From: Sodaliphilus sp.
GTDB taxonomy: Bacteria; Bacillota_I; Bacilli_A; RFN20; CAG-826
NCBI GenBank assembly: GCA_963643355.1
Contig: CAVIJE010000001.1
Location: forward strand, 128,620 to 192,619
Reading direction: 5' to 3'
Length of the DNA: 64,000 nt
In this document: positions 19,063 through 39,915 of the stretch, piece after piece
How the letters are laid out: each line of letters starts with the position of its first letter
Position numbering within the stretch: the stretch's first letter is position 1
Notes under the pieces: generated by a model
Databases searched by the model: none
Seen by the model: only the letters and a program-made list of their open reading frames with translations
What the model was told of the DNA's origin: nothing
Translations under genes and position numbers: made by a program

Positions 19063-20358
19063 ATGGAAGAAAAAGATTTAACACAAATAGCACCAGTATC
19101 AAAAAGAGCTCTCTCTTTTATCATTGATTTCGTTTTAGCCTTCGTGCTTGGCATCATCATTAATAGCACTCTAACAAGTACTTATTTATTTAATGCGTTA
19201 GGAGGAGGAAGTCTCCAACAAGATTATTATTCCTTCGCCATTGATTCAGGGCTTGTTAACGCGACAAAGAATGATGACGGAACGATAAAAACGATATTCC
19301 TTTATTCTTATGCGCCTGACGGAAAGGAAAACACGACTCTCCAATATGTTGCAACGCCAAACTTTGAACTTGGCTATGAAGCATATCTTGATAAGGTTTG
19401 GAACTATTACACGGATTTCTACCCAAACGATTCAAGAATGATTCATCCAGAAGGATATACATATAGCAAAGATTCGTTGGACTCTTATAAAACATATGTT
19501 TATAAAGATATATTCCTTTTGCCAGATCCTACTAGCGTTGAAGGAAAAAGTGATGTCACGCTATATTCAAGCGATGAAAATCAAATCTATTTCCAATACG
19601 CGACAAATGAAGACGGAACGCCTAATTTAACTGCTAAGCCAATTCTTAGAGAGAATGTTAAGAACGATCTTGAGGATGCAACAAAAAGAAACGACACCCT
19701 CAAAAACCTTCGTGATTATTTCCTTGCTATAAGCGAAAGTTCCTCGTCAATATCCATCTCTGGAACGGGAATATATTATCAAGCCGCTCTCCATATGGAG
19801 GGGCAATCTGGTTCAAACCAAACATATTTCTCAAATATCTACACGAAAGTTAGCTGGATTAGCTGGGAATGCTCTCTTGTCGCATTGCTTCCTCTTTATG
19901 TTATTCTCTTCTATATCGTCCCAGCATGTGACAAAAAAGGAAGAACGCTTGGAAAATGGGCCTTTGGCGTTGTTGTAATCAACAAAGACGGAACATACAT
20001 GAAGCCATATCAAAGATTTATAAGGCCTTTATATATGGTTATTCTTTGTTCCTTAACCCTCATTCCTAATAATTCCATTTCTTTCTTAGCCTTTGGTGCT
20101 GTCGCCTTACTTGATTTTGGCTTTGCTTCATTTGGCAAAAACTCACAATCGTTGCATGATAAGATTTTTGGAACTCTCGTTGTTACAAAGAAGAAATCAA
20201 CAATCTTCAAAACAAAAGAAGAAAAAGAAGAATATCTTGCAAAAGAAAATCAAAGAATCGAAGAAGAAAGATCAATCAAAGTTCCTTCAACCGGGAAAAA
20301 CCTCGATTTAAGCACCTTAATTGATGATAACCAAGAAGAAAAGAAAGAAGACAATTAA
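19063..20358 (+). CDS. RDD-family membrane protein with a large extracytoplasmic insert
   Basis: 431 aa. The N-terminal KRALSFIIDFVLAFVLG TM segment is followed by a soluble loop of about 230 aa, then GRTLGKWAFGVVVINKDG and QSLHDKIFGTLVV, as in RDD domains. There is no SD, and a TATATT box lies 7 nt before the ATG. Confidence 0.8.
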   Translation: MEEKDLTQIAPVSKRALSFIIDFVLAFVLGIIINSTLTSTYLFNALGGGSLQQDYYSFAIDSGLVNATKNDDGTIKTIFLYSYAPDGKENTTLQYVATPNFELGYEAYLDKVWNYYTDFYPNDSRMIHPEGYTYSKDSLDSYKTYVYKDIFLLPDPTSVEGKSDVTLYSSDENQIYFQYATNEDGTPNLTAKPILRENVKNDLEDATKRNDTLKNLRDYFLAISESSSSISISGTGIYYQAALHMEGQSGSNQTYFSNIYTKVSWISWECSLVALLPLYVILFYIVPACDKKGRTLGKWAFGVVVINKDGTYMKPYQRFIRPLYMVILCSLTLIPNNSISFLAFGAVALLDFGFASFGKNSQSLHDKIFGTLVVTKKKSTIFKTKEEKEEYLAKENQRIEEERSIKVPSTGKNLDLSTLIDDNQEEKKEDN

Positions 20359-20588
20359 TTAACTTTCATTTTTAAAAGATAACGGTCTTCTTTACGCTCA
20401 TAGGCGATAATATAAGGAGAATTGGTCTTATCTAGATATTCCCTTATTTCATTGATATATCGTTTGAATCTTAAATCATTTATCAAGAGCTCATCTAAAA
20501 TGTCACGTTTGTAGATGACTCTTTTTTCTTTAAGTTTGCTATATATGTATAATAAGCAGAACGTTTTAGAGAAGCCTTTTCTTTTCAT
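20355..20588 (-). CDS. small hypothetical protein, possible winged-helix DNA-binding
   Basis: 77-aa ORF convergent with, and overlapping by 4 nt, the RDD gene. The wHTH resemblance (ILDELLINDLRFKRYINEIREYL) is weak. It shares its upstream region divergently with the 20843 lipoprotein gene. Confidence 0.5.
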   Translation of the reverse strand: MKRKGFSKTFCLLYIYSKLKEKRVIYKRDILDELLINDLRFKRYINEIREYLDKTNSPYIIAYERKEDRYLLKMKVN

Positions 20589-20842
20589 GACAGTTTGATT
20601 TTATATTTTCTTTTGAGAAAAGAGAAATCATATTATTTTGATTATTTGAAATTTGTAAGATGATTTTTACAAATTAAGTCTTTAGAAGGCGTTCTTGAAC
20701 TATTATAATATTCTTCCGGAAGGACACCTTCCAAGACATAAATAACGACACCCCCGTTCCTAGAGAATGAAAAATTAAAACGTTTTCTTTATTTTTCTTG
20801 ACCGTCGGTGTTTTTTCTTTTGTTGAATAGAAAGGTGAATTA

Positions 20843-38434: not shown

Positions 38435-39088
38435 ATGGAAGCAAAGAGATTCTTTACCATCGACAAAGAAACGTTGAAAAGACCTGGCGTCATCCTCCGT
38501 CTTATAGCTATTGGCGTTTGCTTAATTGCTGTTATCCTTACTGTCGTTCTTCCAACCGTCACCATTCAATATAAATATTATTCATCTTCGTCTGAATTTG
38601 ATAATACTAGGGCTCTTCTTTTCCCAACCGAGACGATTTATGGGCCTAATGCCTTATTCGGCGGGGGATATTTTGCGATGTATTTCAAGAGCAATACTCT
38701 TAAAGGAGTTCACGTCCTTTCATCCGTTCAAGCCCAATTCAACTGGATTTTATTTGCTCTATTGCTTTGCATGTTCGCATTCATGATTCTTGCCGTATTT
38801 GTTACCTTTACAAGAAAACTTGAAAAATTCTCTAAATTGACAGTTTTAGGCTTTGCAATTGGCGGTTTTGCCGCAATAGCGTCACCTGTTTGGTTCATGG
38901 TTACGAATAATGTCGGAAACACATATGCGGTTGCAACAACCTCATTAACCAAATATTGGGTTTATGATTCCTTCTATTGCCATTGTGCTTGGGGAGCGAT
39001 TGTAGCCGCTTGCACCTTCATCCTTGCCGCTATCTTATTTGCGATTGGCAGTGGCTTAGAAAATAAAGGCGGAGAAAGAGGAAAATAA
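38435..39088 (+). CDS. polytopic membrane protein, unknown function
   Basis: 217 aa with about 4 TM segments and a GGAGGG SD. It starts 2 nt after the previous stop. Confidence 0.75.
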   Translation: MEAKRFFTIDKETLKRPGVILRLIAIGVCLIAVILTVVLPTVTIQYKYYSSSSEFDNTRALLFPTETIYGPNALFGGGYFAMYFKSNTLKGVHVLSSVQAQFNWILFALLLCMFAFMILAVFVTFTRKLEKFSKLTVLGFAIGGFAAIASPVWFMVTNNVGNTYAVATTSLTKYWVYDSFYCHCAWGAIVAACTFILAAILFAIGSGLENKGGERGK

Positions 39089-39090
39089 TT

Positions 39091-39915
39091 ATGAAAAAGA
39101 ATTTATTACTTGGCTTAGCCTCCTTAATGCTCTTATCCTCTTGCGGAATCAATTCTTTTGGGAAAGAGATTACCTCTATTGATGATTTCGTTACCATTAG
39201 CAAAGATTCAGATAGTAACTTTAACGTCGTTAAATCTAACCGTGTCTTTGTTAAATCCGACAAAGGAAGCGACACATCTTTATCTAGCGTCAACCATAAT
39301 GCGGAAATATATTCAAATAACGATTTTATTTGTGAAGAAAGCACGAGATACACCGGCTTTACAATAAAATATAACGTTGATACATATTTCCTTTTGGCTG
39401 GAGATAAGAATGGCGTTGTATCTGAAGATTCGACAATCTTAGACACCTACCGTCAACAAGCTTATGATTTCATTTCTAACGATTATCAAACAGTCCTAGA
39501 AGAATACGATAGAATGAAAGCTTTCGTTGGCAAGGGAAAAGCTGCTGATATCGATGGAGTTTCTTATACGGATATTTCATTAACCAAGGCCGATGCAAAC
39601 ACAACGCTTGGCTATACCCTAAAATACGCTTTTGCAAAAGATGGCGGAGTTCGTAACGAAGAGCATTATATAACTCTTGATAAGACCGACGATAAGTGGG
39701 GAATCGTATTCTACTCACAACGCATTACGGACGTTATCAACGGAGAGGAAATCTATTACGTAACTGAATATCAATTTTCTTGCCTTAACGATGAGTCTTT
39801 AGCGTCTAAGACCTTAAACGCGAAGAATAACTTAACTAGTTACACCTTTACGGCTTCTGGTTTAGGAAGCGATGATGTTGACCTTGATGGCGATATCGTT
39901 CTAACAAAGAAATAA
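39091..39915 (+). CDS. lipoprotein, unknown function
   Basis: 274 aa with lipobox LSSC. It starts 2 nt after the previous stop. Confidence 0.8.
   Translation: MKKNLLLGLASLMLLSSCGINSFGKEITSIDDFVTISKDSDSNFNVVKSNRVFVKSDKGSDTSLSSVNHNAEIYSNNDFICEESTRYTGFTIKYNVDTYFLLAGDKNGVVSEDSTILDTYRQQAYDFISNDYQTVLEEYDRMKAFVGKGKAADIDGVSYTDISLTKADANTTLGYTLKYAFAKDGGVRNEEHYITLDKTDDKWGIVFYSQRITDVINGEEIYYVTEYQFSCLNDESLASKTLNAKNNLTSYTFTASGLGSDDVDLDGDIVLTKK

Follow-up and report, generated by a model that had tools for sequence, protein, structure and literature searches.

SNase lipoproteins whose genes are transcribed together with those of an ABC importer and a substrate-binding protein (SBP) have been described in mycoplasmas. 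Examples are the M. agalactiae locus P80 (MAG_5030)-MAG_5040-MAG_5050/5060/5070, Mhp379 of M. hyopneumoniae, Mpn133 of M. pneumoniae, MHO_0730 of M. hominis and MbovNase of M. bovis (PMC3585158, PMC9740415). The cluster analysed here (21 kb within the window, i.e. the whole 64-kb stretch of DNA) has in common with these operons a SNase lipoprotein gene lying in the same orientation beside a sugar/Ugp-type importer (ATPase, two permeases) and a binding lipoprotein, and also the hypothesis that the nuclease supplies the importer with nucleic-acid precursors. The gene order is RDD-ATPase-permeases-SBP-SBP-SNase in the cluster but SBP-SNase-ATPase-permeases in the mycoplasmas. In contrast to the mycoplasma operons, the cluster encodes two SBPs and two nucleases, the latter joined to OB or lamin-tail modules, and it has further genes for three RDD proteins and multi-OB lipoproteins as well as four orphan genes. 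A preliminary description of this DNA had called the locus a much expanded mycoplasma-type locus, and it is indeed an enlarged version of the long-known mycoplasma SNase-ABC operon. Both SBPs match the NCBIfam P68 lipoprotein model weakly (E 2e-5 and 4e-5), which is a weak sign that hints at direct orthology to the mycoplasma proteins.

Bacillus subtilis YhcR is a wall-anchored Ca-dependent nuclease which contains OB folds, SNase and 5'-nucleotidase domains and yields 3'-nucleotides. YhcR and the cluster are alike in having OB-fold modules fused to a SNase domain at the cell surface, whereas in the cluster the domain order is different, the anchor is a lipid and not sortase-dependent, a nucleotidase domain is missing and an importer is encoded adjacently. 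A T. thermophilus ABC-transporter protein binding a dinucleotide (UpG, 'U3G') was reportedly described by Chandravanshi and co-workers in 2021 (PDB 7C0F and point mutants); we know of no report of a nuclease gene next door to it. In Izemoplasma (Xianfuyuplasma coldseepsis), for which growth on extracellular DNA was demonstrated, a putative DNA-degradation locus brings together, like our cluster in a Mollicutes-related host, a thermonuclease, other nucleases and ABC transporters (PMC8397711). The description of that locus includes EddB, phosphohydrolases and phosphate transporters, all of which the cluster lacks, whereas no RDD proteins, OB lipoproteins or UgpB-like SBPs have been reported for it (PMC8397711). 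The suggestion that the system has not been described as a unit is correct only in part, since the SNase-ABC core is well known from mycoplasmas (PMC3585158, PMC9740415) and an eDNA-degradation locus is known from Izemoplasma (PMC8397711). Our reading of the cluster, to which we assign a probability of roughly 0.6 on the basis of its sequence, is that it serves the surface capture, cleavage and import of nucleic acid.

The cluster comes from an uncultured gut bacterium of a Bacilli/Mollicutes-like lineage which uses the standard genetic code. All of the ORFs given in the preliminary description for positions 19063-39915 were found at their coordinates (16/16), and families were assigned by Pfam. 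Eight products carry a lipobox Cys, seven have at least one hydrophobic transmembrane segment and the remaining one is the ATPase, so that the description of nearly all products as lipoproteins or membrane proteins was accurate. Lipoproteins are more frequent in the cluster (8/16) than elsewhere in the window (5/31; Fisher p 0.02). The single-strand arrangement was also found as described, but it cannot serve as evidence of a unit, because about 45 of the 47 substantial ORFs of the 64-kb window, including rpoBC, fusA, tuf and uvrA, are on the + strand. The 77-aa ORF on the − strand (20355..20588), a putative gene for which Pfam gave no match at a threshold as loose as E 5, lies in the 484-bp gap between the genes of RDD1 and the first OB lipoprotein. 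The sole + strand terminator-like site within 18500-40062 is a hairpin at 23011..23032, directly 3' of the 717-aa lipoprotein gene and followed by a promoter-like site (23040-23067). Since promoter-like and terminator-like sites in the region of the cluster are no more numerous than in shuffled sequence, this hairpin is weak evidence. The downstream edge of the cluster is formed by tRNA-Lys(CTT) (39977..40052, + strand) and a terminator-like hairpin at 40063-40084. All features described below are on the + strand.

The related loci were defined as the 80 best relatives of the nuclease in contigs of one genome per species; the sample was thus drawn from the nuclease side, by similarity to the query, and left out 476 further SNase relatives. 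In all 74 loci that could be scored (74/74), the SNase gene is preceded within less than 700 bp by the end of an SBP gene. The order ATPase-permease-permease-SBP-SNase/OB on one strand was found in 65 of 67 related loci, and the two exceptions were one truncated locus and one split permease match. Nuclease and transporter are thus co-conserved, and the lack of co-conservation that the preliminary description had named as a refuting outcome did not occur, which supports its interpretation. The GC content of the related loci ranges from 27 to 60%, and the labels on their records are Mollicutes, Acholeplasmatales, Anaeroplasmataceae, Haloplasma, Bacilli, Lachnospiraceae and Oscillospiraceae.

Three RDD-family membrane proteins had been claimed, and all of them were recognized by Pfam: RDD1 (431 aa, 19063..20358, E 1.4e-16), RDD2 (398 aa, 23075..24271, E 5e-14) and RDD3 (352 aa, 24249..25307, E 2.2e-9). 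RDD1 begins with a single transmembrane segment, continues with a hydrophilic loop of some 230 aa and has further transmembrane segments at the C terminus, and its residues R15, D22 and H365-D366 align with conserved RDD columns. RDD1-like genes are present upstream of RDD2/RDD3 in loci L011, L020 and L025; the flanks compared in the loci of close relatives end short of the RDD1 position. RDD2 adjoins RDD3 also in L002-L016, L018 and L025. The location of RDD3 directly 5' of the ATPase gene is the conserved RDD-gene position in related loci: in 52 of 65 loci, less than 400 bp separate the end of an RDD ORF from the ATPase gene downstream of it, and RDD was confirmed by Pfam in 2 clostridial loci. 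The RDD proteins belong to the module as a conserved membrane component; most likely they would assist the importer as an accessory subunit or organise it.

The importer was complete as had been proposed and is CUT1/Ugp-like, with an ATPase, two permeases and two binding lipoproteins. The ATPase (25405..26574; ABC_tran E 5e-37, OB_MalK E 5.5e-5) is of the MalK/UgpC type with a C-terminal regulatory domain, and its best NCBIfam match is UgpC (350.6 bits, cut-off 432). Permease 1 (26577..27662; BPD_transp_1 E 3.6e-20) is UgpA/MalF-like and permease 2 (27664..28713; BPD_transp_1 E 8.4e-19) is UgpE/MalG-like, their best NCBIfam matches being UgpA and UgpE, respectively. The MalK-type ATPase and the two permeases would carry the fragments inside the cell.

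The first nuclease is a 500-aa lipoprotein (31736..33238) with a SNase domain at about 78-232 (E 1.8e-10) and modules of OB topology at about 245-340 and 360-500. Its AF2 model (pLDDT 88.5) gave a TM score of 0.89 to staphylococcal nuclease. The second is a 412-aa lipoprotein (36622..37860) in which a lamin-tail-like domain precedes the SNase domain. Both SNase domains exceed the Pfam cut-off of 21 (41.6 bits for the 500-aa and 29.4 bits for the 412-aa protein), and the motifs quoted for them in the preliminary description, VDGDTAHF..RYNCIDTPES and VDGDTTKF..RYQNIDTPEIDH, respectively, are present. The lamin-tail-like segment, also noticed there, scored 31.4 bits with the LTD model, which is below the cut-off of 34.3, and is backed by a match of the same stretch to the N-terminal part of Shewanella ExeM (NCBIfam NF033680, E 4.7e-16). 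Only this segment resembles ExeM (58 bits compared with a cut-off of 1300); the catalytic domain of the 412-aa protein is SNase and the catalytic region of the ExeM model is unmatched. A second SNase gene is found downstream also in L001-L009, L012-L016, L019, L021, L022, L027, L030, L035 and L055. The S. aureus nuclease residues D19, D21, T22, R35, T41, E43 and R87, which are catalytic and Ca-site residues, are invariant in both enzymes of the window and across 50 homologues. The two lipid-anchored enzymes, assigned by family and with intact active sites, would cut the polymer. The staphylococcal-nuclease family leaves 3'-phosphate and 5'-OH ends and produces mono-, di- and short oligonucleotides, and such fragments would be the output of the cleavage step. 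The presence of the 3'-phosphate on SNase products is documented (PMC12848938). Because of this end and because Pfam and further family searches of the cluster ORFs revealed no phosphatase or nucleotidase, phosphorylated fragments are what the nucleases would supply, and the importer probably takes up such fragments.

The binding lipoproteins SBP1 (28722..30236, with the likely true start at the ATG at 28761; SBP_bac_8 E 3.6e-35) and SBP2 (30307..31719; SBP_bac_8 E 3e-31) are paralogues with 47% identity, and their Pfam matches include SBP_bac_8 and SBP_bac_1. Their closest solved structures are 7c0f and its variants (E 2e-21 for SBP1 and 1e-13), followed by UgpB. 7c0f is probably the T. thermophilus protein that was reportedly solved with the dinucleotide UpG in its site; the PDB entries of this series are entitled 'sugar ABC transporter', and the citation that links them to the dinucleotide binder is indirect. 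The SBPs are just about 25% identical to the Thermus protein and, in contrast to it, the proteins of the window are lipoproteins with long Ser/Thr-rich linkers. They share with the Thermus protein and E. coli UgpB (4AQ4) a phosphate-binding Tyr/Ser/Ser/Tyr quartet. Among 95 SBPs encoded next to cluster-type nucleases, the four positions aligned to the phosphate-coordinating Tyr/Ser residues of UgpB are kept in 94-95, in a mapping that assumes an E. coli UgpB numbering from which that of the source paper differs. Trp169/Trp172, the glycerol clamp of UgpB, is absent from all 95, as from the Thermus protein, and the position of Glu66 is occupied by Pro in 85 of 95. The two Tyr mutated in the Thermus-protein PDB variants are kept (93 Y at one position; 73 Y and 22 H at the other), whereas E. 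coli UgpB has E and N there. A U3G-binding Thermus protein of this kind has been grouped beside UgpB within CUT1 (PMC12718374). Judged by these residues, the binding proteins resemble binders of phosphoesters or dinucleotides more than binders of sugars, although the four phosphate-site residues would suit glycerophosphodiesters or other organophosphates equally well.

The importer might alternatively be of the Ugp type, taking up glycerol-3-phosphate, glycerophosphodiesters or another organophosphate, with the nucleases adjacent through a general phosphate-scavenging regulon and not as suppliers of its substrate. The best NCBIfam matches of the four transporter parts to UgpC, UgpA, UgpE and UgpB, the second rank of UgpB structures among the PDB matches and the conserved phosphate-coordinating Tyr and Ser agree with this. 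We nevertheless consider it unlikely: all four NCBIfam scores are far under the equivalog cut-offs (e.g. 73 versus 411 bits for UgpB), the Trp clamp is missing and Glu66 mostly replaced by Pro as described, no glycerophosphodiesterase (UgpQ/GlpQ) was found by Pfam and further family searches of the cluster ORFs, and the SBP-SNase adjacency is tighter than shared regulation needs. Uptake of dephosphorylated products (nucleosides, deoxyribose, ribose) after the action of unlinked surface phosphatases or nucleotidases also seems improbable. To our knowledge, the nucleoside ABC importers described so far work with binding proteins of the BMP family and not with SBP_bac_1/8, and the conserved core, like the cluster, encodes no phosphatase or nucleotidase. 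A surface 5'-nucleotidase does act alongside nucleases in mycoplasma salvage (PMC11729948), and CUT1 systems typically carry sugars, but the SBPs keep the phosphate quartet, which is absent from glucose binders (PMC12718374). In the nucleic-acid import reading, the two paralogous lipoproteins of the UgpB/dinucleotide-binding CUT1 branch would take the phosphorylated fragments.

The 717-aa lipoprotein (20843..22996, lipobox LASC) was modelled by AF2 (pLDDT 87.0) as five OB-fold modules (about 68-175, 183-285, 298-395, 503-600 and 608-714) and one Ig-like domain (about 418-500), and its internal OB repeats were supported by hhalign (probability 89-98%). The best PDB matches of the model are all tandem-OB nucleic-acid binders, namely p204 HINab-dsDNA (E 9e-9), RPA70, Teb1, RADX and POT1, and there was no carbohydrate-binding module in the top 50 fold matches; the other refuting outcome named in the preliminary description, that the OB-like modules model as carbohydrate-binding modules, thus did not occur either. 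OB folds can, however, bind oligosaccharides or proteins too. The protein has more than 2200 homologues, many with PF01336. The family is mostly stand-alone elsewhere and was not beside the operon in the 2 clostridial contigs examined; the gene in the window has its own terminator-like site. The 802-aa lipoprotein (33276..35684) contains an OB module (471-592), a probable OB module (161-270), a Big_2 Ig domain (E 8e-7), as had been predicted, and an InlB-B-repeat-like part (Flg_new_2 E 3e-4). With hhalign it matched OB1 and OB5 of the 717-aa protein (93-94%) and its Ig domain (95.8%), and module 245-340 of the 500-aa nuclease matched OB2 (96% probability). The OB modules claimed for three lipoproteins were thus verified by structure in the 717-aa protein and by profile in the other two. 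As only about 21 full-length homologues exist, the 802-aa protein is lineage-specific. With their tandem OB folds and lipid anchors, the 717-aa and 802-aa lipoproteins, together with the 500-aa nuclease through its C-terminal half, may retain DNA or RNA from outside the cell at the membrane.

The nucleases and OB proteins could instead have a mainly non-nutritional role (degradation of DNA traps of host or competitors, remodelling of biofilm eDNA, adhesion), the neighbouring importer being an ordinary sugar transporter and its position incidental. In mycoplasmas, SNase lipoproteins break down neutrophil extracellular traps and have cytotoxic effects (PMC9740415), and the Ig-like and InlB-repeat-like domains are of adhesin type. 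We regard this as the least probable explanation, since chance adjacency cannot account for an order kept at 27-60% GC in several classes and the SBP site is unlike that of oligosaccharide binders; moreover, both roles are compatible with each other.

The orphan genes encode the 272-aa (35804..36622, lipobox LAGC) and 274-aa (39091..39915, lipobox LSSC) lipoproteins, a 185-aa membrane protein that has two transmembrane segments and, at its N terminus, a zinc-ribbon motif of the form CxxC...CxxC (37875..38432) and a 217-aa polytopic membrane protein recognized by its hydrophobic segments (38435..39088). Pfam and further family searches gave no family match for the 272-aa, 217-aa and 274-aa proteins. 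Both lipoprotein genes are retained in L002-L016, the 272-aa one in the same position; the zinc-ribbon gene stays with the cluster in L002-L016, L018, L020, L024 and L025, paired with the 217-aa gene in L020, L024 and L025. Accessory genes stay linked to the core at identities as low as 43%, also where they are rearranged (L016, L018, L020, L025). Fourteen genes are found together only inside this clade, and the conserved core, which comprises 6-7 genes, is widespread in gut Firmicutes.

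The gene cluster at positions 19063-39915 was confirmed as a whole by ORF and profile evidence. It lies downstream of rplJL-rpoBC-rpsLG-fusA-tuf, in a low-GC chromosome segment (GC of the window 31-47%) with the standard genetic code, and comprises 16 ORFs on the + strand and one putative 77-aa ORF on the minus strand. Profile searches against Pfam and NCBIfam bore out the family assignments of the preliminary description: three RDD membrane proteins (RDD1, 19063-20358; RDD2, 23075-24271; RDD3, 24249-25307), a MalK/UgpC-type ATPase and two BPD_transp_1 permeases (25405-28713), two substrate-binding lipoproteins of the SBP_bac_1/8 families (SBP1, 28722-30236; SBP2, 30307-31719) and two proteins with SNase domains, one of 500 aa (31736-33238) and one of 412 aa (36622-37860), the latter with a lamin-tail-like segment. 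The 802-aa lipoprotein (33276-35684) combines Big_2 with an InlB-B-repeat-like domain. No Pfam or NCBIfam match was obtained for the minus-strand ORF, three upstream ORFs, the zinc-ribbon protein (37875-38432), the membrane protein of 217 aa or the lipoproteins of 272 and 274 aa. A competence-type DNA uptake machine was rejected, as no ComEA- or ComEC-like product occurs among the Pfam matches of the cluster. A lipobox is present in eight cluster products and seven are membrane proteins; lipoproteins are enriched in the cluster (8/16 against 5/31 in the rest of the window, p 0.02).

The single-strand arrangement is real but is no sign of a functional unit. Nearly all substantial ORFs in the 64 kb are on the + strand, a bias of the genome as a whole, so that the shared strand is uninformative, and same-strand orientation was dropped as evidence. 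The terminator-like sites and gene spacing weakly suggest one long transcription unit from RDD2 to the last lipoprotein gene, with RDD1 and the gene of the 717-aa OB lipoprotein (20843-22996) in separate units. The 717-aa gene is followed by a terminator-like hairpin (23011-23032) and a promoter-like site; the next + strand terminator-like site (40063-40084) lies just past tRNA-Lys, none being present in 23033-40062, and the intergenic gaps within 23075-39915 are 0-119 bp. This reading is weak because the scans were not above shuffled controls, and the promoter-like sites (58 against 56 in shuffles) are uninformative because they are no commoner than in shuffled sequences.

Several neighbouring genes deserve mention. 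Directly 5' of the cluster (16285-18964) are a gene for a 459-aa protein without a family match and two tandem paralogous genes for small lipoproteins of 212 and 220 aa with near-identical central regions. Just past tRNA-Lys (40773-41589) is an MNT/HepT-type toxin-antitoxin pair, made up of a nucleotidyltransferase (Polbeta/NTP_transf_2 with HTH) and a HepT-like RNase; a PFOR gene (41885-45463) comes next. The tRNA-Pro at 49050-49126 has the anticodon AGG in the loop TTAGGGA, and its CCA end is encoded. A34 is uncommon in bacterial tRNAs except tRNA-Arg(ACG), and some Mollicutes carry A34 tRNAs. Further downstream are a Fic/DOC protein with a Bro-N domain (49352-50206), a lipoprotein of 746 aa that bears BspA-type leucine-rich repeats together with a Listeria-Bacteroides repeat (50743-52983), and a prolipoprotein diacylglyceryl transferase (Lgt; 55935-57758) of 607 aa, in which the LGT domain occupies residues 183-438 between long N- and C-terminal extensions.

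Both SNase proteins carry a lipobox and score above the Pfam SNase cut-off. The residues D19, G20, D21, T22, R35, T41, P42, E43 and R87 of S. aureus nuclease A are kept in both domains and are invariant in 50 homologues of the 500-aa protein. In the AlphaFold model of the 500-aa protein (pLDDT 88.5), the nuclease domain matches staphylococcal nuclease with TM 0.89 at 30% identity. The SNase-OB architecture of this protein is common; its full-length family profile detected 516 clusters (50% identity) with E < 1e-30. Searching the PDB by fold with the whole 500-aa model brought up staphylococcal-nuclease variants only and left the C-terminal folds unnamed; these modules were judged from DSSP topology and by comparing their profiles with the OB units found in the 717-aa protein. 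The lamin-tail-like segment of the 412-aa protein scored 31.4 bits with PF00932, under the cut-off of 34.3, and the same segment matches the N-terminus of ExeM (E 4.7e-16).

The linkage of nuclease and importer is the strongest step of the proposed mechanism. A scan of one genome per species with the 500-aa nuclease gave 556 relatives, the best 80 of which were taken with 10-kb flanks and compared with all 16 proteins. Co-conservation of the nuclease and OB-module genes with the transporter was a point on which the original proposal could fail, and the linkage held in the relatives: an SBP gene is immediately 5' of the SNase gene in 74/74 scorable loci of these best 80, and 65 of 67 loci keep the genes for ATPase, permease, permease, SBP and SNase in this order on a single strand, the other two being explained by a truncated locus and a split permease match. 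The GC content of the loci ranges from 27 to 60%. Their labels, as far as they come from independent projects, are Mollicutes, Acholeplasmatales, Anaeroplasmataceae, Haloplasma, Bacilli, Lachnospiraceae, Oscillospiraceae and Clostridia; the labels of one MAG project were left out as clearly unreliable. The complete set from RDD2 to the last lipoprotein gene occurs with its order intact in relatives of 69-86% identity and also in those of 43-55%. In one locus (L016) the RDD genes are shifted downstream and accessory genes remain beside the core, and in another (L018) the genes for RDD2, RDD3, the LTD-SNase and the zinc-ribbon protein are located upstream, beside the core. The CAV... records among the loci (L002-L008, L035, L073), 72-86% identical to the window proteins, have titles naming unrelated organisms (Escherichia coli, Alistipes, Faecalibacterium prausnitzii, Hallerella, Lachnospiraceae), and the taxonomic labels of these bins appear to be wrong.

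The importer has the components of the CUT1 family (TCDB 3.A.1.1), i.e. a MalK-type ATPase, two BPD_transp_1 permeases and SBP_bac_1/8 proteins, with the OB_MalK match of the ATPase (24.4 bits) falling under the 27-bit cut-off. SBP1 and SBP2 are 47% identical, and the best solved relatives of both are 7c0f, 7c0x and related entries (E 2e-21 and 1e-13), followed by UgpB; ordinary sugar binders score far lower. The entry 7c0f, titled a 'sugar ABC transporter' protein in the PDB, is presumably a T. thermophilus protein crystallised with endogenous uridylyl-3'-5'-phosphoguanosine. The SBPs also gave weak matches to the P68 lipoprotein model of NCBIfam. [quoted passage not shown] The SBP clade of the cluster is marked by the motifs CYPDH and GSTGGTTY. 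We aligned the Thermus sequence, E. coli UgpB, SBP1, SBP2 and 95 SBPs adjoining SNase genes. The Thermus sequence was rebuilt from alignments, and its site residues were recognized as differences among PDB point mutants, which gave Y226, T242 and Y248 (chain index). We take Y58 and F81, named in entry titles, to be further mutated residues. The phosphate quartet was placed on the alignment columns by E. coli UgpB residue numbers that we assume to be correct, and these were checked against the K-12 sequence.

With the quartet so mapped, its columns hold Y in 94/95, S in 95/95, S in 95/95 and Y in 95/95 of the SNase-linked SBPs, and by the same mapping the quartet is kept in SBP1, SBP2 and E. 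coli UgpB. The resemblance to UgpB does not extend to a true G3P-specific Ugp system, which was rejected: the Trp169/Trp172 glycerol clamp (W, W in E. coli UgpB) is Trp in 0/95 SBPs, with A, S or D, and F in its place as in Thermus, and the Glu66 column (E in E. coli UgpB) is Pro in 85/95. The NCBIfam UgpB model scores of 73 and 53 bits for the two SBPs compare with a cut-off of 411. The columns of the Thermus site have Y at Y226 in 93/95 SBPs (E in E. coli UgpB), Y in 73 and H in 22 of 95 at Y248 (N in E. coli UgpB), S at T242 in 95/95, and Y in 94 and 95 of 95 at the presumed positions of Y58 and F81, respectively. At the equivalents of Y226, T242, Y248, Y58 and F81, both SBP1 and SBP2 have Y, S, Y, Y and Y. 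Judged from these site residues in comparison with UgpB and Thermus, the ligand is most likely a phosphoester larger than G3P, contacted by aromatic residues much as in the dinucleotide binder. Two SBP genes are present in 21 loci; this pairing and the Tyr/His split at Thermus position 248 may reflect subfamilies of differing ligand preference. SNase-family enzymes yield 3'-phosphate and 5'-OH ends (PMC12848938), and with no phosphatase gene in the cluster, the fragments on offer from the nucleases would be phosphorylated ones.

The preliminary description also proposed OB modules in three lipoproteins, and domain profiles now link those of the 500-aa and 802-aa proteins to the 717-aa protein as homologues. 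Residues 245-340 of the 500-aa protein match OB2 of the 717-aa protein (96% probability, E 4e-9, hhalign), residues 471-592 of the 802-aa protein match OB1 and OB5 (93-94%), and the Ig domains of the 717-aa and 802-aa proteins match each other (96%). The 717-aa protein alone scored 17.4 bits with PF01336, under the Pfam cut-off of 27, and many of its homologues carry PF01336. Its model (pLDDT 87.0) consists of five beta barrels, each showing the strand-helix pattern of OB folds, and one Ig-like sandwich. That such modules might be carbohydrate-binding, an outcome named in the preliminary description as one that would count against it, was rejected by the fold search with this model: the best PDB match was p204 HINab on dsDNA (E 9e-9), the further matches (RPA70, Teb1, RADX, the HIN domains of IFI16/AIM2, POT1) were exclusively tandem-OB nucleic-acid binders, and no carbohydrate-binding module was among the top 50. 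The 717-aa family is very large and unannotated (>2200 matches, 45-50% identical in Eubacteriales MAGs), and none of the sources checked gives it a functional name. It is mostly stand-alone, being absent near the operon in two clostridial contigs, and 717-aa-like proteins are encoded immediately 3' of the SNase gene in about 10 other loci. The 802-aa protein, with only about 21 full-length homologues, is restricted to one lineage. Loci L082 and L083 have a gene for an Exo_endo_phos protein near the 717-aa homologue, and L083 has the AP_endonuc_2 family twice near the OB-lipoprotein homologue.

The three RDD proteins scored 61.5, 53.2 and 38.2 bits with PF06271 (cut-off 24.1), and the signature columns R, D (E in RDD3) and HD are conserved in the RDD subfamily of the cluster. 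By iterated profile, an RDD-family ORF ends less than 400 bp 5' of the ATPase gene in 52/65 loci and is found elsewhere within the locus in four more. Two clostridial loci with Pfam-confirmed RDD have the order RDD-ATPase-permease-permease-SBP-SNase, and the next gene encodes either an OB-domain protein or a large protein of no known kind. The sole characterised RDD protein found in the literature searched has been described as a Na+(Li+,K+)/H+ antiporter (PMC5996927). In a locus labelled Lachnospiraceae (L054), an AP_endonuc_2 gene (3745-4569), encoding a xylose-isomerase-like TIM barrel, is directly 5' of the RDD gene.

The core of the cluster is of the same kind as the mycoplasma operons in which the gene of an SNase lipoprotein accompanies those of a sugar/Ugp-type ABC importer and of the binding lipoprotein P80. 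Mycoplasma SNase lipoproteins include MAG_5040, Mhp379, Mpn133, MHO_0730 and MbovNase, and the M. agalactiae operon is co-transcribed and was proposed to supply nucleotide precursors (PMC3585158, PMC9740415). The cluster has the corresponding surface SNase lipoprotein and an adjacent, co-oriented importer with its binding lipoprotein. It differs from the eDNA-degradation locus of Izemoplasma, which comprises EddB, phosphohydrolases and Pst (PMC8397711): none of the 16 products matched EddB, a phosphohydrolase or a phosphate transporter in Pfam or NCBIfam. The suggestion that the system had not been described as a unit thus holds in part. The core is known from mycoplasmas, but in the literature searched we found no description of the module's extension to gut bacteria of the Clostridia type, its RDD partner, its OB fusions and companions, or the likeness of the SBP site to that of a dinucleotide binder.

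Capture and cleavage of nucleic acids with import of the phosphorylated fragments is the mechanism we favour, with a probability of about 0.6, and this interpretation is supported by computation as far as that reaches. Ligand identity and the role of RDD are its weakest steps. A more specific reading would make the core (RDD, ATPase, two permeases, SBP and SNase-OB, often with an OB protein) a nucleic-acid utilisation locus that is widespread among Firmicutes of the gut and Mollicutes-like bacteria but has gone undescribed, with SBPs directly binding 3'-phosphorylated di- or oligonucleotides and RDD proteins acting as integral accessory subunits of the importer; we regard this as tentative and rather unlikely. 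If true, it would provide an ABC importer dedicated to nuclease products and an importer-linked cellular role for the RDD family.

Reviews treat the idea that the mycoplasma surface nuclease feeds the adjacent importer as a hypothesis and leave the transported substrate unnamed (PMC3585158, PMC9740415). The cluster and its relatives make this idea concretely testable, and the nuclease-importer pairing reaches well past mycoplasmas into abundant gut lineages, both Clostridia-type and Mollicutes-like. The site residues shared with the dinucleotide binder nominate phosphorylated nucleotides and dinucleotides as a candidate ligand class, and two unexpected conserved partners come to light: RDD membrane proteins, for which almost no function is known, and a family of five-OB surface proteins. 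If confirmed, the system would be a nucleic-acid counterpart of the polysaccharide utilisation loci and would bear on the nucleotide and phosphorus supply of gut bacteria with reduced genomes.
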